Shown here one piece after another: positions 2,455-51,270 of a stretch of 64,000 nt of DNA. Under the pieces are notes generated by a model. The model made no database searches. It had not been told where the DNA came from and was given only the letters and a program-made list of their open reading frames with translations. The position numbers were made by a program, and so were the translations under genes. How positions within the stretch are numbered: position 1 is the first letter of the stretch; each line of letters opens with the position of its first letter. Source of the stretch: Devosia sp. (lineage in GTDB: Bacteria; Pseudomonadota; Alphaproteobacteria; Rhizobiales; Devosiaceae); NCBI RefSeq assembly GCF_036563435.1, contig NZ_DATCMJ010000006.1, forward strand, positions 63,995-127,994, written 5' to 3'.

Positions 2455-2952
2455 TTGAGCAACGCCAACCAGAAATCCTTTCCCGTCACCTGGGACCAGT
2501 TTCACCGTGACAGCCGCGCCCTGGCCTGGCGCCTGGCCGGCATGGGAAGCTTCGATGCCGTGGTGGCCATCGCCCGCGGCGGCCTGGTTCCCGCTGCCAT
2601 CGTCGCGCGCGAGCTCAATATCCGCACCGTCGAGACCGTGGCGGTCAAGAGCTACGACCACCAGAACCAGGGCGGCATCCAGGTGCTCAAGCCCATCAGC
2701 CAGCCCATCCTCGACATCGCCAAGAATGGCGGCAAGATCCTGATCGTCGACGACCTCGTCGACACCGGCTCCACCGCCCGCGTCGTCCGCGACATGCTCC
2801 CTGGCGCCCACTTCGCCACCGTCTACGCCAAACCCAAGGGCCGCGACCTCGTCGACACCTTCATCACCGAAGTCAGCCAGGACACCTGGATCTTTTTCCC
2901 GTGGGACCTGGACGTGGCCTATGTCGCGCCGATCAGTGGTGGGACGGACTGA
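2455..2952 (+). CDS. gpt: Xanthine-guanine phosphoribosyltransferase
   Basis: Contains [19 protein letters not shown], the PRPP-binding motif [14 protein letters not shown], and C-terminal [14 protein letters not shown] prefer the TTG start at 2455, which follows AGGAGA at 2444-2449; the ORF-track start at 2377 adds an R-rich tail. Confidence 0.9.
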
Positions 2953-3068
2953 CGGGGCAGCCCGATCGATTGTGGGGCACGCGTAGCAGCAAGGGTCTGC
3001 AAGGGGGTGGGTTGCGGACTGGCGGCTTTCGGCTGAAAATGTGCCTTGTCAGCCGGAAAGGACACTTC

Positions 3069-3642
3069 GTGCATTACCGTGAGGCGCTGCCCAAGACGTC
3101 GACGGCATCACTCCTATCCATGTCATAGGTGGCCAGCAGGCCTATGCTGGTATTTTGCCCGCAACCTATCTCGAATGCGTAATGCCTAAGGAAAAAGCGA
3201 TCTCTGGCGGTCTCGATTGGGCGAAGGGATAGATCAGTCCAGAATGTCGGTAATGGTCGCCGAAGAAGCGAACGATCTTGCCGGTTTTGCTTGCTTTCTG
3301 TTCGACCAAGAACAGGATTTTGGGACTTATCTTCACAACATTTACGTCGCCAAAGGTTATCAGCGAAGAGGCGTAGCCAGCGGCCTGCTTGCAGCAGGGA
3401 TTGAGGCTTTCCATGCAACTAGGCGTGGGGAGCCCGTGCATTTGCTCGTCTTTGCCAAAAACGCGCCGGCCCGAGCTTTTTATGATCGATTAGGCGGCAG
3501 AGTGATCGAACAGATTGAAAGAAGTCGCGCTGGAAGCGAGCCTGTAGCTCTTTTTCGATACCAGTGGGCGTCTGCAAACAAGCTGCGAGAGGCTTCGCTG
3601 CGGCAGATATCAGGGAGCGGCATTAATCGGTCTAGTGGCTGA
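3069..3642 (+). pseudogene. GNAT-family N-acetyltransferase, apparently disrupted by two frameshifts (only the 3' ORF 3217..3642 is intact)
   Basis: The intact ORF carries the acetyl-CoA core YVAKGYQRRGVASGLL but lacks the usual N-terminal region. The missing N-terminus is readable upstream in two other frames. One is VHYREALPK (from GTG 3069). The other is QDVDGITPIHVIGGQQAYAGILPATYLECVMPKEKAISGGLDWAKG (3083..3229, stop at 3230). This region is AT-richer. Confidence 0.55.
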
Positions 3643-3699
3643 CATGGGGTCGGGAGCAGCCATGGTCGCTTAGGCGGATTGCTCCTTCAGCCAACCTCT

Positions 3700-4059
3700 C
3701 AAAAACTTATCCCCGCCTCCCTTCACCCGTGCCAAACTCCACCCATTCCCGCCACGACACGCAGTGCCGACGAAGCACTGGGCGGGGGGAGTGGTAGCCG
3801 GAGTCGCCTGGCACCGGCGTGGATGCTGACCACCGGTAGGCGGGGGACGTGAAAAGGAGAAGGGGGGGATCCCCGCCCGATCGCCCAACCGGACGTTCCT
3901 TCATGGAGCCGCTCGATGCATGCGCGGGAAAAACCAGTTCGTGTGAAGCGGCTTTCGCCTCTTCAACTCCCTCAAACAGGCGGCGCAAGCCGTCGGGGCG
4001 AAAGCCGCTTCCCACCGTGCAACCGCGACGCCAACTGGCCGGGCGGCGTTTTGTGTTGG
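3700..4059 (+). repeat. 360-bp direct repeat, copy 1 (candidate structured RNA or att-like element)
   Basis: By-eye alignment to 7844..8203 in the same orientation shows about 16 substitutions and no indels. It contains several stable hairpins. ORFs crossing it in all frames are R/P/G-rich and not protein-like. Confidence 0.85.
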
Positions 4060-4086
4060 AGCAGGTCCGAAGTGTCTTGCCCCTTT

Positions 4087-4174
4087 ATCATCGAAGTCGG
4101 GCAGGACACCTGGATCTTCTTCCCCTGCGGCCTGACGTGGCCAATGTGGCACAGGTCGGTGGGCGACGGACTGA
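4087..4174 (+). pseudogene. Remnant of a gpt 3' end (second, diverged copy of the last ~30 codons)
   Basis: atcatcgaagtcgggcaggacacctggatcttcttcccc...acggactga aligns with gpt 2863..2952 at roughly 80% identity with 2 single-nt gaps. The track ORF 3916..4230 reads [14 protein letters not shown], against [14 protein letters not shown] in gpt. No upstream gpt body is present. Confidence 0.8.
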
Positions 4175-4289
4175 GGCGATTGGTCCCTGACGATCATGAA
4201 GCTGATGGGCGGCAAGGTGCTCTGCAGTAGGCAGCCTCACGGAGTGCCGCTCTGCGGCAGAGAGCTTGTCCGGCGGTGAGCAAAAACGC

Positions 4290-5039
4290 TTAGCTGGGTG
4301 AGAAGCGAGCTGTCTTGGGCATTCGAAGGTATGTGGGATCGAACTCGGCTGATCGAGCGAGGCCGTCCCAGTCCTTGATGGTGATGAGGTCTCGCTCCCA
4401 GCTGATCACCCCGCGCGCTCTGAGCTTCTGTATCGCGCGATTGGCATGAACTGGCGTAATGGCCAGGCACTCACCAACTGTGGCCTGCGACAACGGAAGG
4501 TGGAAGCTGTAGTCGTCGACCCTGCCAATCTGCCGAAGGCGCAGGTAGAGCTCACAAATCAAATGGGCAAGGTGCTGGTGGGCCTGGTAGCTTCCCAGGC
4601 AAAAAGTCCAGCGCCTGTGCGTGCCGCCATCGACAAGCGTGTTCAACCACAACAGGCGGACGAGCCCGGGATTTTGTTCGTAAATCTGCGTCAGCCGTTC
4701 GTGCGGGAACATGGCTACCTGGCAGGTCGTCAACGCGACTATGCCATGGTCCAGCGGCTTCATCAGCAGGCTATGAAGGTCAACGAAGTCCCCGGCTACG
4801 TGCAGCGACGTTATCTGGCGAGAACCATCCAGCTTCAGGTTATAGCGTGCTGCAAAACCGCTCAGAAGCAAGGTACTGTGAGAGGGCGACGTGCCTTCAA
4901 GCACCAGCTCCGTGTCGGGCGGCACCTCGCGCTCGGAGCTTACCGCCTGTTCGAGAAGCGCCTGCTCTTCCCTGGAAAGAGGCCCGTAGTTCAGAAGACG
5001 GGCGATCAGGAGCCTCACCAAGGAAGCGTCGGAAGCCAT
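4290..5039 (-). CDS. Crp/Fnr-family transcriptional regulator
   Basis: ORF 4290..5129, trimmed to MASDASLVRLL at 5039 (GGAG 5 nt upstream). It has an N-terminal cNMP-binding-like fold (LVLEGTSPSHSTLLLSGFAARYNLKLDGSRQITSLHVAGDFVD). The C-terminal HTH is LPLSQATVGECLAITPVHANRAIQKLRARGVISW. Confidence 0.85.
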   Translation of the reverse strand: MASDASLVRLLIARLLNYGPLSREEQALLEQAVSSEREVPPDTELVLEGTSPSHSTLLLSGFAARYNLKLDGSRQITSLHVAGDFVDLHSLLMKPLDHGIVALTTCQVAMFPHERLTQIYEQNPGLVRLLWLNTLVDGGTHRRWTFCLGSYQAHQHLAHLICELYLRLRQIGRVDDYSFHLPLSQATVGECLAITPVHANRAIQKLRARGVISWERDLITIKDWDGLARSAEFDPTYLRMPKTARFSPS

Positions 5040-5193
5040 GCTCTTTCTCCAATTAGGGCAAGAGCAAACCGCTTCTCCCAATCGTCTGCGACCTAACTTG
5101 GCGGCATTCGATGCGCTCGCTGTTATCACAACTATCGTGAAGACGCGCTATTCTGCATCAATACGTCTAATCCATCTTATAGGTATTTAGCGG

Positions 5194-5211
5194 TTCCGAA
5201 TTTTTTCGGAA
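5194..5211. promoter_or_regulatory. Perfect palindrome TTCCGAA-N4-TTCGGAA, a candidate operator in the divergent Crp-family / DUF6894 intergenic region
   Basis: ttccgaa tttt ttcggaa at 5194-5211 lies between the regulator start (5039, minus strand) and ORF 5258 (plus strand). The dyad spacing fits a dimeric HTH regulator, but it differs from the FNR and CRP consensus sequences. Confidence 0.4.
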
Positions 5212-5257
5212 ACAGTGGCGCCTTTTCCATTGGTACTCCGCATCAGGAGATTACCGC

Positions 5258-5524
5258 ATGGCCCGTTTTTTCTTCCACATTGTGGATGGTCAATTTGTCC
5301 CCGATACTAACGGGATTGAATGCAGCACGCAGGCACAAGTCAAAAATCAGGCAGTTCGTATCGCCGGTGAGATGATCAAGGACCTCGGTTCGGAAGTGTG
5401 GGGTACGAGTCGCCTAGACCTCTTCGTCTGCGACGACCAGAACAATACCCACCTGAAACTGTCGTTTTTTGCCGAGGACGTTTCTGGTACGCTGGGCAAG
5501 TTGGTGCCTGAGTCGTCCACATGA
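5258..5524 (+). CDS. DUF6894-like small protein
   Basis: MARFFFHIVDGQFVPDTNGIECSTQAQVKNQAVRIAGEMIKDL... matches the pattern I recall for DUF6894 (MPRYFFH..DG....D..G.E.......A...A). AGGAGA lies 8 nt upstream of the ATG. Confidence 0.65.
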   Translation: MARFFFHIVDGQFVPDTNGIECSTQAQVKNQAVRIAGEMIKDLGSEVWGTSRLDLFVCDDQNNTHLKLSFFAEDVSGTLGKLVPESST

Positions 5525-5730
5525 TGGTCAGGGCGATACAGCTTTCCGAAGCAGGGGCAGCACTGGACGCTGTCGCGACGGAAGCGGACCTGATGCAGTG
5601 GCACGACGACTGGATGAGCAGTTCCGAATATGTCGGAATGTCCGACGACGAAGCAGGATTTCTCGAAGCATCTTTCGAAGCGAGGGCCCGGCTTTTCGCT
5701 GGCGTTACGCAGAAGCCGCCGTCGCTGTAA
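5521..5730 (+). CDS. Hypothetical acidic small protein, translationally coupled to the DUF6894 ORF
   Basis: Its ATG at 5521 overlaps the upstream TGA (ATGA). It encodes a 69-aa acidic product (MMVRAIQLSEAGAALDAVATEADLMQWHDDWMSSSEYVGMSDDEAGFLEASFE...). I recognise no family. Confidence 0.45.
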   Translation: MMVRAIQLSEAGAALDAVATEADLMQWHDDWMSSSEYVGMSDDEAGFLEASFEARARLFAGVTQKPPSL

Positions 5731-5760
5731 GCCTCCCTGATCGCTCGGCAACACGCGGTC

Positions 5761-6462
5761 CTAGCGGTTCAAGACCTCCGCCATGGATTGGCCGATCTGC
5801 CCGCCGGCATAGGCCTCCCCATATTGCCTGCGGGCATCCCCGGAGAGCTTGCTGAGGGCCGGGAGGGCCGAGACGCGGCGGCAGAGCGCGGCCGTCATTG
5901 GGGCGCTTTCCTCGAGCAGCGTCCGGATCGCGCTAAAGCGATCGGTCATGGTGGTCCACAAGGTGGCGGTGATCACGTCCGCAATGGCTGGTGCCACGCC
6001 GCCCAGCATGAAGCCGCTGTCGGCCTGGAGCCCGTGTCGACGCCCGGTTTCTTCCCAGATGCGCATCCACTGCTGAAGCCTGGGCTTGAACTCCTCCCAG
6101 CGCTCCGGCGTCCACATCGCCTTGCCGCCATCGAGGGTGATCTCGTCGATCACGTCATTGGCGTCGTTGACGATCTTCATGGTCATCGCCCGCTCCTGGG
6201 GCGTGTCCGGCAGGAGGTTCAGCGTTTCGCCGAGATAAAGGATGATGGCCGGCATCTCCGCGATGGCGAACCCGGTCGTCAGCTCGATCAGCACCGGCGG
6301 CCCCATGAACGGCACCGGCATGTCACCGATCGCACCCTGCATCAGCCGCGAAATCTTGCCATCTCCACCCTCGACCCAGCTCTTGCCGGCAAAAGCGAGC
6401 ACCGCCCGGACGAATTGGCCGCGAAACGGGACGGACCAATAGAGCAGTTCATAGTCGGCCAT
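5761..6462 (-). CDS. Glutathione S-transferase family protein
   Basis: ORF 5761..6570, trimmed to MADYELLYWSVPFRGQFVRAVLAFAG at 6462 (GGAG upstream). It shows a thioredoxin-like N-terminal domain and a helical C-terminal domain typical of GSTs. Confidence 0.75.
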   Translation of the reverse strand: MADYELLYWSVPFRGQFVRAVLAFAGKSWVEGGDGKISRLMQGAIGDMPVPFMGPPVLIELTTGFAIAEMPAIILYLGETLNLLPDTPQERAMTMKIVNDANDVIDEITLDGGKAMWTPERWEEFKPRLQQWMRIWEETGRRHGLQADSGFMLGGVAPAIADVITATLWTTMTDRFSAIRTLLEESAPMTAALCRRVSALPALSKLSGDARRQYGEAYAGGQIGQSMAEVLNR

Positions 6463-6664
6463 GGGGAGCTCCTGCGAGCGTTGCAGCCTGTCGCCAACGC
6501 TCTCGAAGGCGATCGGTTCGATCGATGCCGATCTCTGACGCAGCGGCTGGTGCCGGCTCGCAAGCTTCATCAGCGAAAATCGGCACGGCCGTTTACGATA
6601 AAGATCAGATATGCACTCGTTGGTGGCTCAGGTCTGTTAGCTATTTGGCAACCTTGGGCAAGAC

Positions 6665-7723
6665 ATGCAGAAATCAAGCACCTACCGGCCAGAGCTAGAC
6701 AGCATCCGTGCACTATGCATCATTTTTACTGTAGCCGGGCACGTACCTGGAGCGATGCCTCTCATTAATGGCAGCGTAGGAGTTGATGTCTTCTTTGCGC
6801 TTAGCGGCTGGTTGGTCACGAGTCTGCTGCTCAAGGAGAGGCAGGTCGCCGGGGAAATTTCTCTTGGCTCCTACTACCTGAGGCGCACATTCCGCATCGT
6901 GCCGCTTTATGCTCTGACAATTGGCTTGTACTTTTGCGCTGCTTACCTGCTGCAGGCGATGCTGTCCCAGGGTGAGGAACTCTCGGCCTTTCAATCGGGC
7001 TTCGTGTATTTCGTCACATTCAACGGTGAATACATGTTGCACCGTGACGGGCTGTTGTTTGGCCACTCATGGACCTTGGGGATCGAAGAAAAGTTCTACC
7101 TCTTTTGGCCGCTAGCTATCATTCTGCTGGGGCAGCACAACATCTCTGTTCTTCTCGGCGCAACCATTCTCGCCATCACCATCCTGATTTTGCCGGCTTC
7201 CAACCCAGAACTGCTCGTTAGAGGCTATGTTGGATTGGCTGCCGGTGCTTTCGCCGCCATAGCTTCCTCGCGCTCTACAGCGATCTCCCGCGGCTTTGGG
7301 AACTTGATTGCTCCGCGGTTAGCACTTTTGGGCATTGGCTTTGCTTATTTGGCATCAGTTTTCCTTCCGACTGCGATCATATGGAACCTGCTGATATCCC
7401 TTTTTGCAGTGCCGCTGATCGCTCACTTGTGGATACAACAGAGTGAAGGCTCCATCGGCAAAGTGCTGAGGTGGACGCCACTCGCGGCCCTTGGTCGGCT
7501 TACCTATGCGGTGTACCTAACTCACGTCCTTGTGATAAATGCCGTTTTGCTGGTTCTAGACCGCTTGGGTTGGTCGCCGGGATGGTGGCTCACCTTTCTC
7601 CTTTCGTATGCTGCGTCACTCTTATTGGGGGTTTGCTTACATCTCTTCATCGAGAGGCCCTTTATTGCGGCGGGCCGAAACTTATCGAGACGCTCCATCA
7701 AAGGTACTGCCGTGCCAGTTTGA
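6665..7723 (+). CDS. Acyltransferase family 3 (OafA/YrhL-like) membrane O-acyltransferase
   Basis: RPELDSIRALCIIFTVAGHV...VDVFFALSGWLVTSLLL...RRTFRIVPLY...SWTLGIEEKFYLFWP is the canonical acyltransferase-3 motif set. The protein has about 10 hydrophobic segments. Confidence 0.88.
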   Translation: MQKSSTYRPELDSIRALCIIFTVAGHVPGAMPLINGSVGVDVFFALSGWLVTSLLLKERQVAGEISLGSYYLRRTFRIVPLYALTIGLYFCAAYLLQAMLSQGEELSAFQSGFVYFVTFNGEYMLHRDGLLFGHSWTLGIEEKFYLFWPLAIILLGQHNISVLLGATILAITILILPASNPELLVRGYVGLAAGAFAAIASSRSTAISRGFGNLIAPRLALLGIGFAYLASVFLPTAIIWNLLISLFAVPLIAHLWIQQSEGSIGKVLRWTPLAALGRLTYAVYLTHVLVINAVLLVLDRLGWSPGWWLTFLLSYAASLLLGVCLHLFIERPFIAAGRNLSRRSIKGTAVPV

Positions 7724-7843
7724 TCGTCGGCAGTGGCTTCAGGATTGCCGGGTGTCACCAAGCTCAGGGTCGTTGAAGCTGCTTTTGAGCCCGGAGTGCT
7801 GCCTTGGATTGCGCCTCAGTTCAGGAGCAGCAGGCGACCACTG

Positions 7844-8203
7844 CAAAAACTTATCCCCACCCTCCTTCACCCGTGCCAAACTCCACCCATTCCCGCCACG
7901 ACACGCAGTGCCGACGAAGCATTGGGCGGGGGGAGTGGTAGCCGGGGTCGCCCGGCACCGGCGTGGATGCTGACCACCGGTAGGCCGGGGACGTGAGAAG
8001 GAGAAGGGGGTAATCCCCGCCCGATCGCCCAACCGGACGTTCCTTCATGGAGCCGCTCGATGCATGCGCGGGAAAAACCAGTTCGTGTGAAGCGGCTTTC
8101 GCCTCTTCAACTCCCTCAAACAGGCGGCGCAAGCCGTCGAGGCGAAAGCCGCTTCCCACCGTGCAACCGCGACGCCATATGGCCGGGCGGCATTTGGCGT
8201 TGG
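7844..8203 (+). repeat. 360-bp direct repeat, copy 2, ending 58 nt upstream of tRNA-Leu
   Basis: Same as copy 1. Hairpins lie at 7906-7924, 7941-7956 and 8007-8018. A 17-bp perfect stem at 8089-8105/8139-8155 encloses a GCAA-tetraloop hairpin (8123-8138). Confidence 0.85.
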
Positions 8204-8261
8204 CCGAACGGCCACTAACGCGTTGGCACCGCGCGTCCCCCATGCTACCTCCCCCTCCGCC

Positions 8262-8347
8262 GCGGGCGTGGTGGAATGGTAGACACACCGGACTTAAAAT
8301 CCGGAGGGGGTATCCCCGTGCGGGTTCGAGTCCCGCCGCCCGCACCA
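8262..8347 (+). tRNA. tRNA-Leu (anticodon UAA), CCA encoded
   Basis: Cloverleaf by hand. Acceptor is GCGGGCG/CGCCCGC. The anticodon stem CCGGA/TCCGG closes the loop CTTAAAA. The long variable arm is AGGGGGTATCCCCGT, the T arm is GCGGG-TTCGAGT-CCCGC, and the discriminator is A followed by CCA. Confidence 0.95.
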
Positions 8348-8359
8348 CAAGGAGCCGCC

Positions 8360-8740
8360 ATGATCGAGCGTATCGAAACCGGAATCGCCCCCTCATCGGC
8401 ACCGATCAGTGACGCGGTCCGCGCCGGCAATCACCTGTGGCTCGTGGCCATTGCCGAAGATCCGCAGACCGGCGAGATCGTCGAGGGCGGCATCGAGGCG
8501 CAGGCACGCCGCTGCATCGAGAACCTCGAGATCGCGCTCAAGGCGGCCGGCGGCACGCTCCGCAACCTCGTCATGGTGCAGATATTCCTCGTCGACAGCG
8601 CCGACGCCGCCGGCATGAACAGCGTCTATCGCGAATTCTTTACCCAGCAACCATTCCCGGTGCGCGCAACCGTCGTGGTCAAGGAGCTCCTTGCAAAGGG
8701 CCTCCGCATCGAGATCACCGCGCAGGCGGTGCTGGGCTGA
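8360..8740 (+). CDS. RidA/YjgF/UK114 family (reactive intermediate deaminase-like) protein
   Basis: Reads MIERIETGIAPSSAPISDAVRAGNHLWLV...NLVMVQIFLVDSADAAGMNSVYREFF...PVRATVVVKELLAKGLRIEITAQAV. AAGGAG lies 6 nt upstream of the ATG at 8360. The ORF-track start at 8276 falls inside the tRNA. Confidence 0.85.
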   Translation: MIERIETGIAPSSAPISDAVRAGNHLWLVAIAEDPQTGEIVEGGIEAQARRCIENLEIALKAAGGTLRNLVMVQIFLVDSADAAGMNSVYREFFTQQPFPVRATVVVKELLAKGLRIEITAQAVLG

Positions 8741-9027: not shown

Positions 9028-9695
9028 AACGGCGTCGGCGCCACGAAGCGCACGAATTCGCCCGTCGTGGGATGGGTGAGGCCCAGTTCCGCCGCATGCA
9101 ACTGCAGCCGGTCGGCCGCCGCCAAAGCCGCAGCATCGGCATAAAAGGCATCGCCCAGAATCACATGGCCGATGGCCTTCATGTGCACCCTGAGCTGATG
9201 CGTTCGCCCGGTCAGCGGATGGAGGCGCACGCGCGTCGCCGCCGCCTCGCGCTCCAGCACCACATATTCGGTCTGCGACGGACGGCCATTGTCCCAGTCC
9301 ACGCGCTGGCGCGGCTTGTTTTCCCAGTCGGTGGCGAGCGGCAGATCGACAAGGCCGCTGTCGCTCTCGATGATGCCGTCGACGCGGGCGATATAGGCCT
9401 TGGTGGTCTTGCGGTGCTCGAACTGCGAACCGATGCGGCCATGGGCGCGCTTGTTGAGCGCCAGCACCAGGACGCCCGACGTATCCTTGTCGAGCCTGTG
9501 GCACATGCCGGCGGTCGGCCAGGTTTGCCGCGCCCGGTACTCGATGCAGTCCCACAGCGACGGGTCCTTGCCCGGAACGCTCAGCAAGCCGCTCTGCTTG
9601 TCGACCACCAGGATATCCTCGTCCACATAAAGGACGTTAAGATAGGGATCGAGGGGCGGGTGGTAGTCGACGAGGGTGGGCATGGGACCGGGCAT
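9024..9695 (-). CDS. RluA-family pseudouridine synthase
   Basis: Contains LVVDKQSGLLSVPG, the catalytic motif HRLDKDTSGVLVLA, then KAYIARVDG and THQLRVHM. Confidence 0.9.
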   Translation of the reverse strand: MPGPMPTLVDYHPPLDPYLNVLYVDEDILVVDKQSGLLSVPGKDPSLWDCIEYRARQTWPTAGMCHRLDKDTSGVLVLALNKRAHGRIGSQFEHRKTTKAYIARVDGIIESDSGLVDLPLATDWENKPRQRVDWDNGRPSQTEYVVLEREAAATRVRLHPLTGRTHQLRVHMKAIGHVILGDAFYADAAALAAADRLQLHAAELGLTHPTTGEFVRFVAPTPF

Positions 9696-43561: not shown

Positions 43562-45592
43562 TTAGCTGGACTGCAGAACGGTTCGGAGCGCCTGAAGCAG
43601 CGCAGTTCGCGTGAAGGGCTTGGTCAGGAGAGGAACGTCCCCGGGGCGTTTGGCGATGTCCTCAACATCGGCAAAGCCACTGATGATCACGGCTGGCCAC
43701 TCGGCCCGCATGGAGCGCGCGGTGGTGATGAGATCCAATCCGGACATGCTGGGCATGGCGTAATCAGTGACGATGACGTCGAAACGGGTTTCGCTGCTGC
43801 TGATGATCTCCAAAGCCTCGACGCCACTAGCCGCGCAGGTCACCTGATAGCCGGCGTCGGACAGGTGCATGCGCGTGAGGTCGCGCAGGCCCACCGCATC
43901 GTCGACCAGGAGCACGGTCTGCCCGGACGCCACCAGCGGCTCGGCCTCGCCACCCAGGGAAGGTGCGTCCTCTTCGGCGTCACTCCTCGACCGGGGCAGC
44001 CAGACTTCCACGACGGTGCCCGATCCCAGTTCGCTGTGAACGCGAAGGCTGCCGCCTGACTGCTGGGCAAAGCCCAGGACGGAGCTCAGGCCCAGGCCGG
44101 TGCCCTTGCCAGGATCCTTGGTGGTGAAGAAGGGCTCGAGGACGCGCTGCAGTAGGTCGGGCGGAATGCCGGCACCGGTATCGGCCACGGACAGCAGTAC
44201 ATAGTCGCCCTGAGCCAGTTCGCCCTGCTTTTCGGCTAGGTGCCGATTGCTTCCCGAGACCGTGACGGTGCCACCGTTGGGCATGGCGTCGCGGGCGTTG
44301 ATCACGAGGTTCATCAGTGCCAGCTCGAGTTCGCCACTGTCCACAAAGGCTGGCCAAAGGTCTTCGTCCAATTCCCACTTGAGGGTGACCAAGCCACCAA
44401 GAACGGGTCCGAGCATGCCGTCGAGGGCGCGGGCGGCGTCCGCGACCCGAACAACTTCGGGTTGCAGGTGCTGGCGCCGGGAAAAGGTCAGCATGCGGTT
44501 GACGAGATGCGTGCCTTGCTGAGCGGCGTGGCGCATCATGCCCAGGACCTTTTGCCCGCGCTCGTCGAGGTCGCTCCGCCGTTCAAGGAGCCCGACGCCA
44601 CTCAAGATCGACGCGAGAAGATTGTTGAAGTCGTGCGCGATGCCACCGGTCAGTTTTCCAATGGCGTCCAGCTTTTGCGACTGGAGCAACTGATCCTGAA
44701 GACGGCGCTGTTCGGTGATGTCGCGCAGGGTGCCGACCCAGGTTCCTTGGCGTCCCGACACCGGCACCCGCTGATCGACGAATACTCGATAGGCGCCGTC
44801 GCGATGCTGCCAGCGATATTCACCCGCTGCGACATCGGCAGACGCCAGCCACGCAGCCTGATCATCAGCGTGGATGCGATCTCGCCAAACTTCCGGACTG
44901 GCTTCGAATGCTTCGGCCGAAAAGCCGGTCAGACTTTCGACGTCGCCAGCGATGAAGACGGGCGTGTTGCTGCCGGTGGTGATCTGGAACACGGCCAGGG
45001 GCAGGGAGCGCAACAGGAGTGCCTGCCGTTCTTCCGCCTCGCGGAGCGCCTGGTCGATCTTGAAACGCTCGGCCTGGGCCTTGAGCGTCTCCTGCAGCAG
45101 CGCCTGCTCGCGCCGGGCGTTACGCTCAATCTCCCGGGTCTTTTCGTAAAGACTGACGAAGACCGAAACCTTGGAGCGCAGTATGACCGGGTCGACCGGC
45201 TTGAACACGAAGTCGACGGCGCCGCTGTCATACCCGCGCATCAGGTGGGCGTCTTCCTTGTTGATGGCAGTTAGGAAGATGATCGGTGTGTCGTGCGACT
45301 GCTCGCGCATCCGCACCAGCTTGGCCGTCTCGTAACCGTCCAGCCCTGGCATCAGGACGTCCAGCAGGATAACCGCGAATTGCCCCTTGAGGAGGTGCCG
45401 AAGGGCCTCGGCGCCGGAGTCGGCGGTGACGATCTCCGCTACGTCTTCAAGGACCTCGCTCAAGGCAAGAAGGTTGCGCTGGTCATCGTCGACTAGGAGA
45501 ACACGCGGGCGGGCAGTCATATGCGGCTCCTCCGCCCCCGATGTGGGTTCCGGCACGATCGCTACGGCAGCATCGGCTAAGGAAAGGCTCAT
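43562..45592 (-). CDS. Hybrid sensor histidine kinase/response regulator (REC - coiled coil - PAS - HisKA - HATPase - REC)
   Basis: N-terminal REC reads [15 protein letters not shown]...[14 protein letters not shown]. The H-box is [14 protein letters not shown], the N/G boxes are [12 protein letters not shown] and DTGAGI...GTGLGLS, and the C-terminal REC is TVLLVDDA...[13 protein letters not shown]. Its ATG overlaps the upstream kinase stop (ATGA). Confidence 0.92.
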
Positions 45593-48500
45593 GCGCCGTT
45601 CGCAATCATGCTCGACCCAGCGCGGGTTTGCGACCGCCCGATCCAGACGCGCAGCAGTGCGAGCAGGAGATCTAAGTCCACCGGTTTAGCGATGTAGTCC
45701 GACGCGCCGGCATCAAGGCATTTCTGGCGGTCACCCTTCATCGCCTTGGCGGTGACGGCAATCAGCGGAATATGAGCCAGGGCAGGGCGGTTGCGGATTT
45801 CGCCCATGGTCTCATACCCGTCCATCTCCGGCATCATGATGTCCACGAGGGCGATATCAACGTCGGTGTTGCGCTCCAGGATTTCGATGCCTTCGCGACC
45901 GCCTTCGGCATGCAGAACTTCAATGCCGCAGGTTTCCAGCAAGCTGGTCAGCGAATAGATGTTGCGGATATCGTCGTCGACGATCAGCACCTTGGTACCG
46001 GCGAGGTCCTGTACACCGATCTGCTCCTGTCCATCCGGGCTGGCATCGAGCGGCCGCTCCAGCAACTGGACCAGCTGGTTGATATTGCCCGCACGGGAGA
46101 GGTTTCGAAGAGCAGGTGGCTCCGTTTCGGCAGGCAGGTTCTCAGTACCAAATAGAATAGTGGCGGCAAGCACCGTCTCGTCCTGATGGGCAAGATTGGC
46201 CAGTGCCGTCTTGTCATCTTCTGCAGAGCGACCGAGCGAGAAGACGATGTGGTTGTATTGGTGCAGGGCCGCCTCGTCGGTATTCGCAGGCAGGAAGTCA
46301 ACAACTGTGACGGAGGTCACTCCGTCTCGGATTGCTTCGGTGGTCGCAGTTCTGCGATCGGTGTCGTTATCGACCACGAGAACGCTGCGTTGCCGGCGGC
46401 CGGGGTCATCAACGATGGAGGCAAAGACCTGGGTCAACTCCTCCTGTTCGACAGGCTTCAGCATGACGGTGGCTGCACCCTTGTCCGATAGACCCGCAGC
46501 GTCTTCGGCGCCTGAGATCACGTGGATGGGGATCGAAGCGGTCTTGGGATCGTGACGGAGAAGGTCGAACAGGACCCAGCCATCGATGTCGGCGAGGCCA
46601 AGGTCGAGTGTCACGGCGTCGGGCATGATCTTGCGCGTGAGCGCCAGGGTGCCGGAACCCGCTGTTGACAAGACGGCCTTTAGACCAGCCGCCCGAGCGA
46701 CGTTGAGCAAGACGCGGCCGAAGGTGGGATCGTCTTCGACGATCAGGATGACCTTGTCGCCAGGTTCGAGATTGTTACGGTCGTCGGCGTCGATTGCTTC
46801 GCTGGTGGAGTGAGCACCGGGAGCGCCTAATTCAGCCAGGGTGGTTTCGTTTTGCTGCAGGCCGAGGCTTTGCGGGCCGTCGAGCGGTACGACGAGTGTG
46901 AAGGTCGAGCCCTTGCCGGGGATGCTCTGCACACGCAATTCGCCGCCAAGGAGATTGGCGATCTCGCGGCTGATCGAGAGACCAAGGCCCGTACCGCCAT
47001 ACTTGCGGCTGGTGGTGCCGTCAGCCTGCTGGAAGGCCTCGAAGATCAGCTTCTGCTTGTCTTCGGGAATGCCGATGCCGGTATCGCTGACGGCTACAGC
47101 CAGCATACGGGGTGCTGTACGTCCGCGCCGTTTGGCTGCTGCCTCCTCCAGCCCAAAGCGCAGCTTGACCTCGCCCTGTGCGGTGAACTTGAAGGCGTTG
47201 GAGAGGAGGTTGAGCACCACCTGCTGCAGACGCTTTTCGTCCGTCCGCATGGTCTCGGGCAGGTCCGGGTCGATCTCGATTGTAAACGAGAGCCCCTTGT
47301 CACTGGCAAGCTGCCGGAACGTGCGCTCCATGTGCTGGCGCAGCTGGCTGAGCTTGAGGTCGCCAAGGTCGATTGAAACGGTGCCCGACTCGATCTTGGA
47401 CAGGTCGAGAATGTCGTTGATGAGGTTGAGCAAGTCAGTGCCGGCGGCGTTGATGGTGCGCGCGAACTCGACCTGCTTGTCATTGAGGTTGCCCTGCTGG
47501 TTGGAGGCCAGGAGCTTCGAAAGGATCAGCAGCGAATTGAGCGGCGTGCGCAATTCGTGCGACATGTTGGCTAGGAATTCGGACTTGTACTTGGAAGTGA
47601 GGGCCAGCTGTTCGGCCTTCTCCTCAAGCGCGCGGCGCGCCATTTCGATCTCGAGATTTTTGTTCTCGACCTGGCGCTTTTCGTTTTCCAGAAGCTGCGC
47701 CTTTTCCTGCAGCTCCTCATTGGTGGCGTGCAGCTCTTCCTGCTTCTTGGTCAGTTCCGACTGGCGTGCCTGCAGCTCTGCAGTCAGCAGCTGGGACTGC
47801 TTGAGCAGGCCCTCGGTGCGCATGGTCGCGGCGATCGTGTTGAGCACGATGCCGACTGACTCCATCAGCTGGTTGAGGAAGGACTGGTGGGTGTCATTGA
47901 ACTCGCCAAAGGAGGCGAGTTCGATCACTGCCTTAACTTCTTCTTCAAACAGCGCCGGCAGGATGATCACGTTGGCAGGGTCGGCAGCGCCAAGGCCAGA
48001 GCTGATCTTGAGGAAATTAGGCGGCACCTCATCGAGCATGATCACGCGCTTGTCTGCGGCGCTCTGTCCGATCAGGCCCTCGCGCAGTGCGAGCTGGCTT
48101 TTGATCGCTGTGCTGTTTTCTGCCCCATAGCTGGCAGCAAGCTCGAGCCGGGTCTCTGAATCCTCACGGTTGGTCACGTAGAACACGCCATACTGAGCGT
48201 TCACCAGAGGAGCGAGCTCGCTCATGATCAGGCGCGACACCGTAGAGAGGTCGCGTTCGCCCTGCAGCATGCGCGAGAAGCGCGCCAGGTTGGTCTTGAG
48301 CCAGTCCTGCTCGGCGTTCTTGAGGGTCTGATCCTTGAGGTTGCGGATCATCTCGTTGATGTTGTCCTTGAGCGCCGCCACTTCACCGGAGGCTTCCACA
48401 GAGATCGAGCGGGTCAGGTCGCCCTTGGTCACGGCGGTGGACACTTCGGCAATGGCGCGCACCTGGGTGGTCAGATTTGCCGCTAGCTGGTTCACGTTGT

Positions 48501-51270
48501 CGGTCAGGTCGCGCCACAGGCCGGCAGCACCGGGCACGCGGGCCTGGCCGCCGAGCTTACCCTCGATACCCACTTCGCGGGCCACGTTGGTCACCTGGTC
48601 GGCAAAGGTCGCCAGCGTCTCGATCATGCCGTTGATGGTTTCGGCGAGCGCGGCGATTTCGCCCTTGGCATCCACCGCGAGCTTCCGCTTGAGGTTACCC
48701 TGCGCCACCGCGGTCACCACCTCGGCGATGCCGCGCACCTGGTTGGTGAGGTTGGTGGCCATGAGGTTCACGTTGTCCGTGAGGTCCTTCCACGTGCCGG
48801 CGACACCTTCCACGCGCGCCTGGCCGCCCAGCTTGCCTTCCGTGCCCACTTCGCGCGCCACGCGCGTCACTTCGCCGGCGAAGGAATTGAGCTGGTCCAC
48901 CATGGTGTTGATGGTGGATTTCAGCTCAAGGATTTCCCCCTTCACGTCCACGGTGATCTTTTTAGACAAGTCGCCGGATGCCACGGCCGTGGTCACTTCG
49001 GCGATGTTACGAACCTGGCCCGTTAGGTTCTGCGCCATGGAGTTCACATTGTCGGTCAAATCCTTCCAGGTGCCGCCCACGCCCTTCACCTGCGCCTGGC
49101 CGCCCAGCTTGCCCTCGGTGCCCACTTCGCGGGCCACGCGCGTCACTTCGGATGCGAAGGAGTTGAGCTGGTCCACCATGGTGTTGATGGTGTCCTTGAG
49201 CTCGAGGATTTCGCCGCGCACCGCCACGGTGATCTTTTTGGACAAGTCGCCCGAGGCCACGGCGGTGGTCACCTCGGCGATATTGCGCACCTGACCGGTG
49301 AGGTTTGCGGCCATGGCGTTCACATTGTCGGTCAGGTCCTTCCAGGTACCCGCGACGCCGCGCACTTGTGCCTGGCCACCGAGCTTGCCGTCCGTGCCCA
49401 CTTCGCGGGCGACGCGCGTCACCTCGGAGGCGAAGGAGTTGAGCTGGTCCACCATGGTGTTGATGGTGTTCTTGAGCTCGAGGATTTCGCCCTTCACGTC
49501 CACGGTGATCTTTTTCGACAAGTCGCCCGAGGCCACCGCGGTGGTCACTTCGGCGATGTTGCGCACCTGACCGGTCAGGTTCTGCGCCATCGAGTTCACA
49601 TTGTCGGTCAGGTCCTTCCAGGTACCGGCGACGCCTTCCACATGCGCCTGGCCGCCGAGCTTGCCCTCGGTACCCACTTCGCGCGCCACGCGCGTCACTT
49701 CGCCAGCGAAGGAGTTGAGCTGGTCCACCATGGTGTTGATGGTGTCTTTGAGCTCAAGGATTTCACCCTTCACGTCCACGGTGATCTTCTTGGACAGGTC
49801 GCCGCGCGCCACGGCGGTGGTCACCTCGGCGATGTTTCGCACCTGGCCGGTGAGGTTCGCGGCCATCAGGTTCACGTTGTCGGTGAGGTCTTTCCAGGTG
49901 CCGCCGACGCCCTTCACGTCGGCCTGGCCGCCCAGCTTGCCCTCGGTGCCCACTTCGCGCGCCACGCGTGTCACTTCGCCAGCGAATGAATTGAGCTGGT
50001 CCACCATGGTGTTGATGGTGGACTTGAGTTCGAGGATTTCGCCCTTCACGTCCACGGTGATCTTTTTGCTCAAGTCACCCGAGGCCACGGCGGTGGTCAC
50101 TTCGGCGATGTTGCGCACCTGGCCGGTCAGGTTGGCCGCCATCAGGTTCACGTTGTCGGTCAGGTCCTTCCAGGTGCCGCCCACGCCGCGCACCTGCGCC
50201 TGGCCGCCGAGCTTGCCTTCGGTACCCACTTCGCGCGCCACGCGCGTCACTTCCGAGGCGAAAGAGTTGAGCTGGTCCACCATGGTGTTGATGGTGGACT
50301 TGAGCTCGAGGATTTCGCCCTTCACGTCCACGGTAATTTTCTTCGACAAGTCACCCGAAGCCACGGCGGTGGTCACTTCGGCGATGTTGCGTACCTGACC
50401 GGTAAGATTCTCGGCCATGAGGTTCACATTGTCGGTGAGATCCTTCCAGGTGCCGCCGACGCCTTCCACGCGTGCCTGGCCTCCAAGCTTGCCTTCGGTC
50501 CCCACTTCGCGCGCGACGCGGGTCACTTCGGAAGCGAAGGCGTTGAGCTGATCCACCATGGTGTTGATGGTGTTCTTGAGCTCGAGCACCTCACCCTTCA
50601 CCTCCACGGTGATCTTGCGGCTGAGGTCGCCATTGGCCACGGCAGTGGTCACTTCGGCGATGTTGCGCACCTGGCTGGTCAGGTTCTGCGCCATGGAGTT
50701 CACATTGTCAGTGAGGTCCTTCCAAGTGCCGGCGACGCCCTTCACCTGTGCCTGGCCGCCCAGCTTGCCCTCCGTGCCCACTTCGCGCGCAACGCGCGTT
50801 ACTTCCGAGGCAAAGCTGTTGAGCTGGTCCACCATGGTGTTCACGACCTTGCCGATACGCAGGAACTCACCGCGCAGGGGCCGTCCGTCGATCTCTTCCA
50901 TCATGGACTGGCTAAGGTCGCCCTTGGCCACGGCGCCAATCACGCGCGCCACCTCGGCGGTTGGCTGCACCATGTCCTCGATCAGCTCGTTGACCGAGCG
51001 GACGCTGGCCTCCCAGCTGCCGGTGGCATTGCGCACATGGCCGCGCTCGCCGATGCGGCCGTCCTTGCCCACCACGCGGCCGAGCCTGGCGAACTCGTCG
51101 GTCAGCGCCTCGTTGAGTTCCACGATTTCGTTGAAACTCTGGGCAATTTCGAAGTCCAAGCCCTCGAAGTCACCATCCAGCCGGACCGAGAAGTCGCCGC
51201 GCCGGAACGCTCGCAGAGCATTCAGAATATGGCGGCGATCAAGCTGTTGAACGAGAGCGGAGGTGGTCAC
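45589..51270 (-). CDS. Giant cytoplasmic poly-HAMP hybrid histidine kinase (~10 x 92-aa HAMP units - GAF - coiled coil - HisKA - HATPase - 3 receiver-like domains), 1893 aa
   Basis: GTG start at 51270 with GAGGAG upstream and no N-terminal hydrophobic segment. The repeated unit is [86 protein letters not shown]. Downstream come a GAF-like region, the H-box [20 protein letters not shown]...GGTGLGLSI, and a canonical final REC (VLIVDDD...[10 protein letters not shown]...KP). Confidence 0.93.
48799..50730 (-). repeat. Seven near-identical 276-bp tandem repeats inside the poly-HAMP kinase gene (three more diverged units extend the array to about 48247..51020)
   Basis: The 92-aa period begins at codon 181. 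The periodicity also shows in antisense and out-of-frame track ORFs, where [33 protein letters not shown] recurs in ORFs 48335.., 49298.., 49601.. and 50558... Confidence 0.9.

Follow-up and report, generated by a model that had tools for sequence, protein, structure and literature searches.

A repeated, structured element of Devosiaceae with a conserved fold on one strand

We analyzed a 64,000-nucleotide stretch of DNA from Devosia sp. (contig NZ_DATCMJ010000006.1, positions 63,995 to 127,994; hereafter the window) that contains two copies of a ~360-bp repeat unit, which we call R. We found that R belongs to a family of homologues with a strand-specific fold that is maintained by compensatory base changes. 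On balance, we favor the reading that R is a self-contained element specifying a trans-acting non-coding RNA, that it forms a multi-copy accessory family of the Devosiaceae, and that the pair in the window arose by recombination at a hotspot.

On this reading, a conserved 5' box and a -10-like hexamer would serve each unit as its own promoter. The product would be an independent transcript of ~270-350 nt with the plus-strand fold, in which a nested 5' hairpin is followed by a long-range helix around a variable domain, then by a 21-bp rod whose tip varies, and lastly by a 3' hairpin. It would most likely act in trans as a protein-binding or regulatory scaffold RNA. The variable domain and the rod tip would give each paralogue its specificity, and the copies would be homogenized within a genome by gene conversion or re-insertion.

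Conserved fold and folding strand

The two copies of R in the window are nearly identical and differ in ways that respect their helices. They lie in direct orientation on the same strand (copy 1 at ~3700-4059 and copy 2 at 7844-8203, 4144 bp apart), are ~96% identical, and differ by 14-15 substitutions and no indels. An earlier reading of the window from its letters alone (the sequence-only reading) had proposed that the unit is an unclassified structured RNA with helical elements a to d. The hairpins are where that reading placed them: a pairs CAGUGC (7906-7911) with GCAUUG (7919-7924) inside CCCGCC (7892-7897) and GGCGGG (7925-7930), b is at 7941-7956, c is at 8007-8018, and d is a perfect 17-bp stem (8089-8105 with 8139-8155) whose tip in copy 2 is the hairpin GGCGGC-GCAA-GCCGUC (8123-8138). 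Comparison of the copies also bore out the structure-aware substitutions that it described: element a has a G-C pair replaced by G·U, d has a U-G pair replaced by U-A, b contains a G·U and an opened pair, and c is altered only in its loop. The other differences map to the promoter-like spacer of the 5' region, the variable middle, the loop of one hairpin, and the 3' tail. Folded alone, copy 2 was only moderately better than shuffled sequences (z = -2.5; one shuffle in 100 did as well). Taken alone, the window is thus suggestive and not conclusive, and the strong evidence comes from homologues.

The fold is conserved among homologues. We aligned 14 full-length copies with MAFFT (alignment A4) and predicted a consensus fold with RNAalifold. 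The fold has 61 pairs in 10 helices, and 28 of these pairs show compensatory double changes, as compared to 13.4±2.3 pairs altered on both sides in shuffled alignments (0 of 500 reached the observed number) and 3-7 in controls in which the pairing partners were slid. Across A4, 96.8% of the cells were paired, compared to 87.3±0.6% in the shuffles (again, 0 of 500 reached this) and 40-50% in the slid-partner controls. The predicted pairs include 87 G·U and only 7 A·C, and the consensus folding energy was -93.0 kcal/mol for the plus strand versus -65.1 kcal/mol for the minus strand, indicating that the folding strand is the plus strand, as the sequence-only reading had argued from the wobble pairs. 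Based on the pairing, the compensatory changes, and the strand bias, we conclude that the structure is real, strand-specific, and under selection.

Support is not the same for every part of the molecule (Table 1). Helices a, b, and d covary, contributing to the 28 doubly changed pairs, and the long-range helix 4 includes a pair (columns 123/333 of A4) that is seen as GC, UA, CG, and AU; in the window, helix 4 consists of 3 bp and a G·G mismatch. Hairpin c belongs to the internal domain, which varies among homologues or is missing from them. A second subtype of R has GGCGGCCAUUGG/CCAAUGGCCGCC in helix 8 where the window type has GCGGCUUUCGCC/GGCGAAAGCCGC. The largely unpaired block GCGUGGAUGCUGACCACCGG is a candidate for a tertiary or protein contact. 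The 3' module is invariant in nearly all copies, so that covariation speaks neither for nor against it.

R does not encode a protein. The sequence-only reading had found no protein-like open reading frame (ORF) in the unit. As worded, this was too strong, as Arg/Pro-rich ORFs of 50-180 aa cross R on both strands. The non-coding character of R nonetheless holds: the frame is not kept across homologues, as the indels between conserved blocks have lengths that are not divisible by three. We rejected protein coding on the basis of these unconserved frames and of ORF sequences that resemble high-GC artefacts.

R did not match a known RNA family. We ran the 4227 covariance models of Rfam 15 at gathering thresholds and at E<=10, and the window gave nothing except tRNA-Leu under either setting; eight homologue loci searched at E<=10 gave no match on R and no recurring family. 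An unclassified structured RNA, with homologues and with helices a, b, and d kept through compensatory changes, is thus what we found. The families that the sequence-only reading had set aside also stayed out. ARAGORN found two tRNAs and no transfer-messenger RNA (tmRNA) in the window, and there was no Rfam match to tmRNA or alpha_tmRNA. RNase P RNA had no Rfam match in the window or the eight homologue loci, and R is multi-copy. No group II domain V was found at E<=10 in the same sequences.

Several other candidates were rejected. For 6S RNA and signal recognition particle RNA there was no Rfam match, and R is multi-copy. Group I and group II introns were rejected on the grounds that R is intergenic, that Intron_gpI, group II, and domain V models had no match at E<=10, and that helix 8 is without a bulge or fixed tetraloop. 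There was no reverse-transcriptase domain among the neighbors examined, arguing against a retron msr-msd. A T-box, a group I intron in tRNA-Leu(UAA), a retron, and an integron attC site were also considered and dropped, as R does not show their defining features. A riboswitch or other cis-regulatory leader was rejected on the basis of the downstream neighbor, which is usually a convergent gene (pth, hemH, and others). The Rhizobiales-1 and Rhizobiales-2 motifs are unrelated to R, and literature searches with sequence strings and keywords found no published description of R. Separately, the 600-bp gap between R and hemH at one locus (L096, 2176-2330) had a weak Rfam match to sot2652, a haloarchaeal sense-overlapping-transcript small RNA (sRNA) family, with a score of 30.8 bits (E=0.003) that is below the gathering score of 61. 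This match is probably due to chance.

The 5' end of R resembles a promoter. The near-invariant AAAAACTTATCCCC is followed by an unconserved, variable spacer of ~18 nt, a hexamer (CATACT, CATAAT, or CATCAT in homologues and CAAACT in the window), a few nt, and then the first helix. AAAAACTTATCCCC is found in the window in the two copies of R and nowhere else. We suggest that it is the -35/UP part of a promoter belonging to R, together with the -10-like hexamer. At the other end, the unit finishes with CCGCGACGCC-NNNN-GGCCGGGCGGC and a 12-nt tail. The Devosia copies have a GC hairpin and a U-rich tail there, and the copy in L114 has a regular UCGCC/GGCGA hairpin and then GGGGUUUUGG. With its sharp ends, promoter-like 5' box, scaffold with a variable domain, and 3' hairpin, R appears to be a self-contained unit, with putative promoter and transcript ends of its own.

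Copy number and distribution among Devosiaceae

We found ~30 homologues of R in Devosiaceae genomes and metagenomes (homologous and related loci are numbered L001 and so on). Nineteen metagenome loci were found with a pattern taken from the conserved 3' end and were confirmed with a covariance model of the 3' domain (90-134 bits). With this model, a second copy came to light in L085, and the window yielded none beyond the two already known. Further homologues came from a set of loci linked to pth (L111-L116) and from four Devosia loci (L003, L004, L006, and L011). Among cultured isolates there was just a diverged copy, in D. indica (L003); the full-length copies found here are all derived from metagenomes. 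The Pth proteins encoded beside R have close homologues that are all from Devosia or Pelagibacterium, indicating that the family, as sampled, belongs to the Devosiaceae, and it appears confined to Devosia, Pelagibacterium, and relatives, bacteria of soil and water. There was no blastn match to R among 72,556 plasmids (PLSDB) or the INPHARED phages, and no match in IMG/VR with three pattern scans.

R is repeated within genomes. Many matches are at contig ends with 29-117 nt of R left, and L085 and L095 have one at each end. There are at least six distinct 3' flanks of R in assembly Ga0207773 and three in PJUF01, and an independent Logan assembly of the same strain as the window, which derives from JGI metagenome contig Ga0436436_00086, breaks inside R. 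Contigs that break inside R and the many different 3' flanks together indicate that R is multi-copy.

Copies of R are in tail-to-tail intergenic regions by housekeeping genes. The neighbor is pth in five loci (L085, L090, L092, L111, and L114), hemH in three (L084, L096, and L093), hppA in two (L082 and L083), and pal in one (L081). It is tRNA-Leu in the window, L004, and L099, with a remnant in L098, and there are other neighbors as well. No transposase, TnpB/IscB, integrase, or reverse transcriptase was found among the genes neighboring any of the ~30 copies. A seemingly conserved 'small protein' encoded upstream of R at three loci (L084, L096, and L090) was considered as a partner and rejected; it has no Pfam match and most likely represents shared short palindromic repeats translated by chance, of the kind present downstream of pth (see below).

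The copies evolve in concert and exchange modules. Between three assemblies, the pth-locus copies are 73-78% identical, whereas each matches the copies found elsewhere in its assembly at 94-98% identity. Thus, copies group by genome and not by locus. Modules are also combined as mosaics. The variable domain of L087 is that of L081 and not that of its genome-mate L098, and the rod tip of L087 is that of L098.

The distribution of R is patchy. The pth site contains R in L111 and L112 and, as a different subtype, in L114, L115, and L116. It is without R in Devosia sp. FJ2-5-3, D. riboflavina, Ca. D. phytovorans, Devosia sp. YIM 151766, and L113 (the empty loci are L105, L108, L109, L110, and L113). 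Presence or absence at this site does not track the similarity of Pth. The patchiness could reflect either homogenization by gene conversion combined with frequent loss, or re-insertion at preferred sites. An empty locus (L105) and a filled locus (L114) share both genes flanking the pth site, and L114 also has other repeats there. No clean filled/empty junction was drawn from these two loci, and the 3' end of R in L114 resembles native sequence downstream of pth.

We made two further observations on the region downstream of pth. Right after the pth stop codon, loci without R (L105 at 4712-4735, L110, and L113) have GGCAGGGGCGGGTTTT and CGAAGCGGGGTCT, which are like the last 15-25 nt of R, GGCCGGGCGGCGTTT; the corresponding 3'-end sequence of R in L114 (6706-6750) is GGCGAAGCGGGGTTTT. 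This likeness could be a remnant, a target preference, or a coincidence of GC-rich sequence. Dense, short, GC-rich palindromic repeats that are unrelated to R are also present there, in L111 (7090-7800), L108 (4703-5010), and L114 (7000-7170). Examples are CCCCGCGAAAGCGGGG, CCCTCGGGCTTGCCCGAGGG, and CCTTCTCCC-N4-GGGAGAAGG.

The gpt/tRNA-Leu locus and the tandem modules

In the window, the copies of R are at the right-hand ends of two tandem modules. The order is gpt, a segment with a GNAT gene, R copy 1, a gpt remnant, the cargo of module 2, R copy 2, tRNA-Leu, and ridA. This gene order and the repeated gpt ends define two tandem modules, each consisting of a gpt 3' end, cargo, and R (Table 1). 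The regions 2953-3700 and 6600-7800, which carry the GNAT and acyltransferase_3 genes, have a GC content of 52-55% as compared to ~65% elsewhere. The cargo of both modules appears consistent with foreign DNA.

The interval between gpt and tRNA-Leu is a recombination and integration hotspot, as judged from its variable length, flipped and fragmented tRNA genes, and a second doubling of the gpt end. We compared 80 loci fetched with gpt as the anchor; the window Gpt is 96% identical to Gpt of Devosia metagenome-assembled genomes (MAGs). The conserved core order is map-cinA-gpt-tRNA-Leu-(ridA)-orf95-rluA, and the gap from gpt to tRNA-Leu ranges from 10 bp to ~8 kb across Devosia loci. The tRNA-Leu(UAA) gene beside gpt is inverted in seven Devosia loci (L003, L005, L006, L008, L017, L024, and L026), and fragments of tRNA-Leu are present in L005, L014, L022, L028, L032, and L098 (6769-6820). 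In L098, the tRNA is interrupted past the anticodon arm by low-GC DNA. Flipped and fragmented copies of this kind look like classic traces of integrase-mediated island traffic. In a Devosia MAG (L002), the gpt 3' end is doubled (8400-8498 and 9150-9252) around a 600-bp insert with a 179-aa ORF. The gpt 3' end thus looks like a recurrent attachment or recombination point that was doubled independently in the window and in L002.

R is not part of the core of this locus. Homology between the window and the closest of the relatives without R (L001) starts at ~8198, exactly where R ends, and includes TTGGCA-N12-CATGCTA. R was present in four of the gpt-anchored loci: full length in L006, where the tRNA is on the opposite strand; diverged and 900 bp from the tRNA in L011; as a 75-nt 3' remnant in L004; and as a diverged copy in a different place in L003.

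We believe that the pair in the window did not come from R copying itself or transposing. The tandem modules probably arose when DNA from a related strain recombined at the gpt/tRNA-Leu hotspot, through a single crossover (Campbell-type) or homology-facilitated illegitimate recombination. This would have set a foreign segment (gpt 3' end, cargo, and R) in tandem with the resident one. The identity of 96% between the copies of R versus 80% between the gpt ends fits with purifying selection or conversion acting on R. A look for strains with a single R from before the duplication, using exact-protein look-ups of RidA, GNAT, and the acyltransferase, led back only to the source contig and to a Logan assembly of that strain.

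Elsewhere in the window, nine tandem 276-bp (92-codon) units that are 65-70% identical are at 48335-50842, in a minus-strand ORF of 1893 aa (45589-51270). The product is presumably a large surface protein with repeat domains.

Table 1. Positions of R, its parts, and the surrounding modules in the window
Feature	Position	Strand	Comment
gpt 3' end, repeat A1	2860..2952	+	from the intact gpt gene, 2455-2952
Module 1 cargo	2953..3700	+	low-GC; GNAT acetyltransferase gene at 3244-3642
R copy 1	3701..4059	+	complete unit, between the GNAT gene and the gpt 3'-end remnant; covariance-model score 119 bits
gpt 3'-end remnant, repeat A2	4082..4178	+	~80% identical to 2860-2952; begins 23 bp past R copy 1
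Module 2 cargo	4179..7844	.	3.7 kb; Crp-like regulator, DUF6894, GST-like protein, acyltransferase_3
R copy 2	7845..8203	+	complete, from 5' box through scaffold and 3' hairpin to tail; tRNA-Leu is 59 nt downstream; covariance-model score 117.8 bits on the 3' domain; in alignment A4
5' box AAAAACTTATCCCC	7845..7858, also 3701-3714	+	sharp 5' edge of the family; near-invariant in 13 full-length copies
-10-like hexamer CAAACT	7877..7882	+	putative; conserved columns 61-66 of A4
Nested 5' hairpin, helices 2 and 3 (element a)	7890..7932	+	conserved 7-nt loop CGACGAA; 14 pairs, 10 with compensatory double changes, 97-100% of cells paired
Helix 4, 5' strand	7935..7938	+	long-range, partner 8078-8081, encloses the middle of the molecule; A4 columns 122-125 with 331-334
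Hairpin, helix 5 (element b)	7941..7956	+	6 pairs, 4 with double changes, 98.8% paired
Conserved block GCGUGGAUGCUGACCACCGG	7960..7985	+	largely free of pairing in the consensus fold; A4 columns highly conserved
Variable internal domain	7986..8048	+	0 to ~130 nt in homologues; contains hairpin c (8007-8018); not alignable between subtypes
Conserved block GGAGCCGCUCGAUGCAUGCG...AAAAACCAG	8049..8081	+	includes the 3' strand of helix 4
Helix 8, 21-bp rod (element d, inner 17 bp)	8085..8159	+	variable tip; 21 pairs, 9 with double changes, 98% paired
3' module CGUGCAACCGCGACGCC-NNNN-GGCCGGGCGGC	8160..8191	+	terminal hairpin: CCGC/GCGG and GCC/GGC around an invariant GAC/CGG internal loop; structure from the covariance-model build
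12-nt tail	8192..8203	+	semi-conserved, U-rich in Devosia copies; similarity between copies stops sharply after it
TTGGCA-N12-CATGCTA	8223..8247	+	predicted promoter-like element of tRNA-Leu; conserved in the window, L001, L004, L011, and L099, including loci without R directly upstream
tRNA-Leu(UAA)	8262..8347	+	Rfam and ARAGORN; neighbor of R, integration hotspot

Alternative explanations and relation to known systems

Several points weigh against a self-contained, trans-acting RNA. A simple scan for sigma-70 promoter and canonical terminator consensus sequences found none in R, and its -35-like box differs widely from TTGACA. Invariance leaves three short 3' helices, and the helix that closes the 5' and 3' ends, neither supported nor contradicted; helices 1, 9, and 10 show no variation and are thus without support, and the closing helix may be upstream of the true start of transcription. 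The fold was predicted on the same MAFFT alignment that was used for counting, which the slid-partner and shuffle controls offset only in part, and several of the aligned sequences are from the same or close genomes, so that the number of independent events is lower than that of cells. We identified neither a partner protein nor a target of R. Lastly, many Devosia lack R at the corresponding loci, which makes a core cellular function unlikely and a selfish element possible.

The main alternative is that R is a non-autonomous mobile element whose structure is kept for mobility, and that it spreads to terminator-rich, tail-to-tail regions. It might be related to miniature inverted-repeat transposable elements, an orphan guide or scaffold RNA of the IS200/IS605 type, or an RNA-mediated retro-element. 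We consider this possible rather than probable. The sharp ends, the multiple copies, and the near-identical copies that break assemblies of a single genome are all consistent with mobility, as are the presence and absence of R at pth without regard to the Pth phylogeny, the different subtypes at that one site, and the location of R among other short palindromic intergenic repeats. A scaffold followed by an unconserved flank, as in TnpB reRNAs, is compatible with mobility without being specific to it. However, none of the genes expected of such an element is beside the ~30 copies, the ends (AAAAACTTATCCCC... and ...GGCCGGGCGGC) are not inverted repeats, and there was no duplicated flank at 13 full-length copies, as judged by inspection and not by a formal search. 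There is no likeness to R on the plasmids in PLSDB, where insertion sequence elements abound, nor to RNAs in Rfam that are linked to mobile elements, such as HEARO. In addition, selection has kept ~10 helices and single-stranded blocks across subtypes that are 50-75% identical, beyond what a DNA hairpin at a transposon end would need, and the same loci (pth, hemH, and tRNA-Leu) are occupied in several assemblies.

More tentatively still, R might be the first example of a new class of structured RNA of ~300 nt that is at once a ribonucleoprotein or ribozyme scaffold and a self-propagating unit. Such a unit would have its own promoter, would spread close to terminators, would be homogenized within genomes, and would carry a swappable retargeting domain without a protein partner encoded in cis.

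We think it unlikely that R is a passive structured intergenic repeat of the ERIC, BOX, or RIME type, transcribed only within the 3' untranslated regions of neighboring mRNAs as a stabilizer or terminator. Tail-to-tail sites, a few nt from the stop codon of a convergent gene, would suit such a repeat, as would the modular, mosaic build, which is like that of BOX elements, and the resemblance of some 3'-end sequence to empty pth sites. On the other hand, the conserved 5' box, the -10-like hexamer, and the variable spacer look like a promoter, and the size and complexity of R are far above those of ERIC, RIME, and Rhizobiales-1, which are hairpins of 60-127 nt.

It is less likely again that R acts as DNA, either single-stranded or duplex, as a recombination or attachment site or a protein-binding region tied to the island hotspot. 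R is in an integration hotspot that is bounded by repeats in the window, and the core of the 5' box, TTATCCCC (7851-7858 and 3707-3714), is similar to the DnaA box TTATCCACA. Most copies, however, are outside of any island context. The strong strand asymmetry excludes a palindrome in duplex DNA. Folded single-stranded DNA, which also tolerates G·T wobbles, is formally still an alternative to RNA, but ten helices that include a long-range one, conserved unpaired blocks, and GNRA- and UUCG-type tetraloops are typical of RNA. As a separate observation, TTATCCCC is doubled (AAAAACTTATCCCTCTTATCCCC) in L111 at ~7040-7062 (minus-strand numbering).

Least probable, to the point that we give it little credence, is a cis-acting 5' leader or processing element that is co-transcribed with tRNA-Leu(UAA). 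In its favor, the window, L004, L099, and L098 all have R or a 3' remnant 55-60 nt upstream of this gene and in the same orientation. Against it, most copies are by pth, hemH, hppA, pal, or other genes with no tRNA near, the tRNA of L006 runs opposite to R, copy 1 in the window is followed by the gpt remnant and not by a tRNA, many Devosia have gpt and tRNA-Leu just 10-100 bp apart with no R, and the promoter-like TTGGCA...CATGCTA between R and the tRNA is present also where R is absent. The sequence-only reading was right about the position and strand of copy 2 relative to tRNA-Leu, but the leader relation that it allowed does not hold, as most copies are far from any tRNA. Based on the conserved promoter-like element that tRNA-Leu has for itself, we conclude that R is not its leader and is independent of this gene.

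If R is transcribed as we propose, then it is a well-supported new family on a short list of large, complex orphan RNAs of bacteria. Earlier entries on that list proved to be ribozymes, riboswitches, or guide RNAs, or to assemble into cages. R is unusual in combining a selected 10-helix fold, several near-identical copies per genome at housekeeping loci, and an exchangeable internal domain. It makes testable the idea of an RNA gene family that spreads and stays homogeneous without an obvious encoded enzyme, and cultured Devosia isolates could serve as the experimental system. For annotation, R explains recurrent breaks in Devosia assemblies and marks the gpt/tRNA-Leu interval as a recombination hotspot.

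Known systems offer analogies only, and R appears to be an uncatalogued family within the structured bacterial non-coding RNAs and RNA repeats. Like ERIC/IRU, the pneumococcal BOX, the Neisseria Correia, and the rhizobial RIME and Rhizobiales-1 elements, R is multi-copy, intergenic, modular, patchy among strains, and structured at the RNA level. In contrast, ERIC, BOX, Correia, and RIME elements are single imperfect hairpins of 60-150 nt, and Rhizobiales-1 is a ~60-nt hairpin with ~40 copies per genome, whereas R has a 10-helix fold with a long-range helix and far fewer copies. R is similar in size to the two-piece (permuted) alphaproteobacterial tmRNA, the gene for which is a classical site of island integration. 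However, tmRNA is single-copy, and R has no tRNA-like domain, CCA-ending acceptor arm, or tag frame.

R also resembles HEARO, the omega-RNA of IscB, and TnpB reRNA in being a structured scaffold of ~200-350 nt that is multi-copy and has a sharp end followed by unrelated flank. Many copies of these families are without a protein gene. R differs in having no adjoining IscB or TnpB, no Rfam match to HEARO, and no conserved target or transposon-associated motif that we could see, and also in having a promoter-like 5' box and filling the same loci in different genomes. The multi-paralogue alphaproteobacterial sRNA families alpha-r14, alpha-r15/AbcR, and 'cuckoo' (PMC3927594, PMC3346310) consist of independently transcribed genes that, like R, occur as multiple copies within a genome and occupy varying intergenic 'nests'. 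These sRNAs have Rfam entries, a length of 100-170 nt, and 2-3 hairpins; R has two to three times that size, is unrelated in sequence, and has a swappable internal domain.

The remaining comparison is with the orphan large structured RNAs of bacteria found by comparative genomics, namely ROOL, GOLLD, OLE, and raiA (Weinberg et al. 2010, PMC2864571, and later work). R differs from these in that it matches no Rfam model, is shorter (~280-375 nt), is multi-copy with concerted evolution, is found only in Devosiaceae, and has no match in phage or plasmid collections. GOLLD and ROOL are often near tRNA genes. As with all four, the function of R is not evident from the adjoining genes, and R shares with them a length of several hundred nt, many covarying helices, conserved unpaired blocks, and variable peripheral domains.

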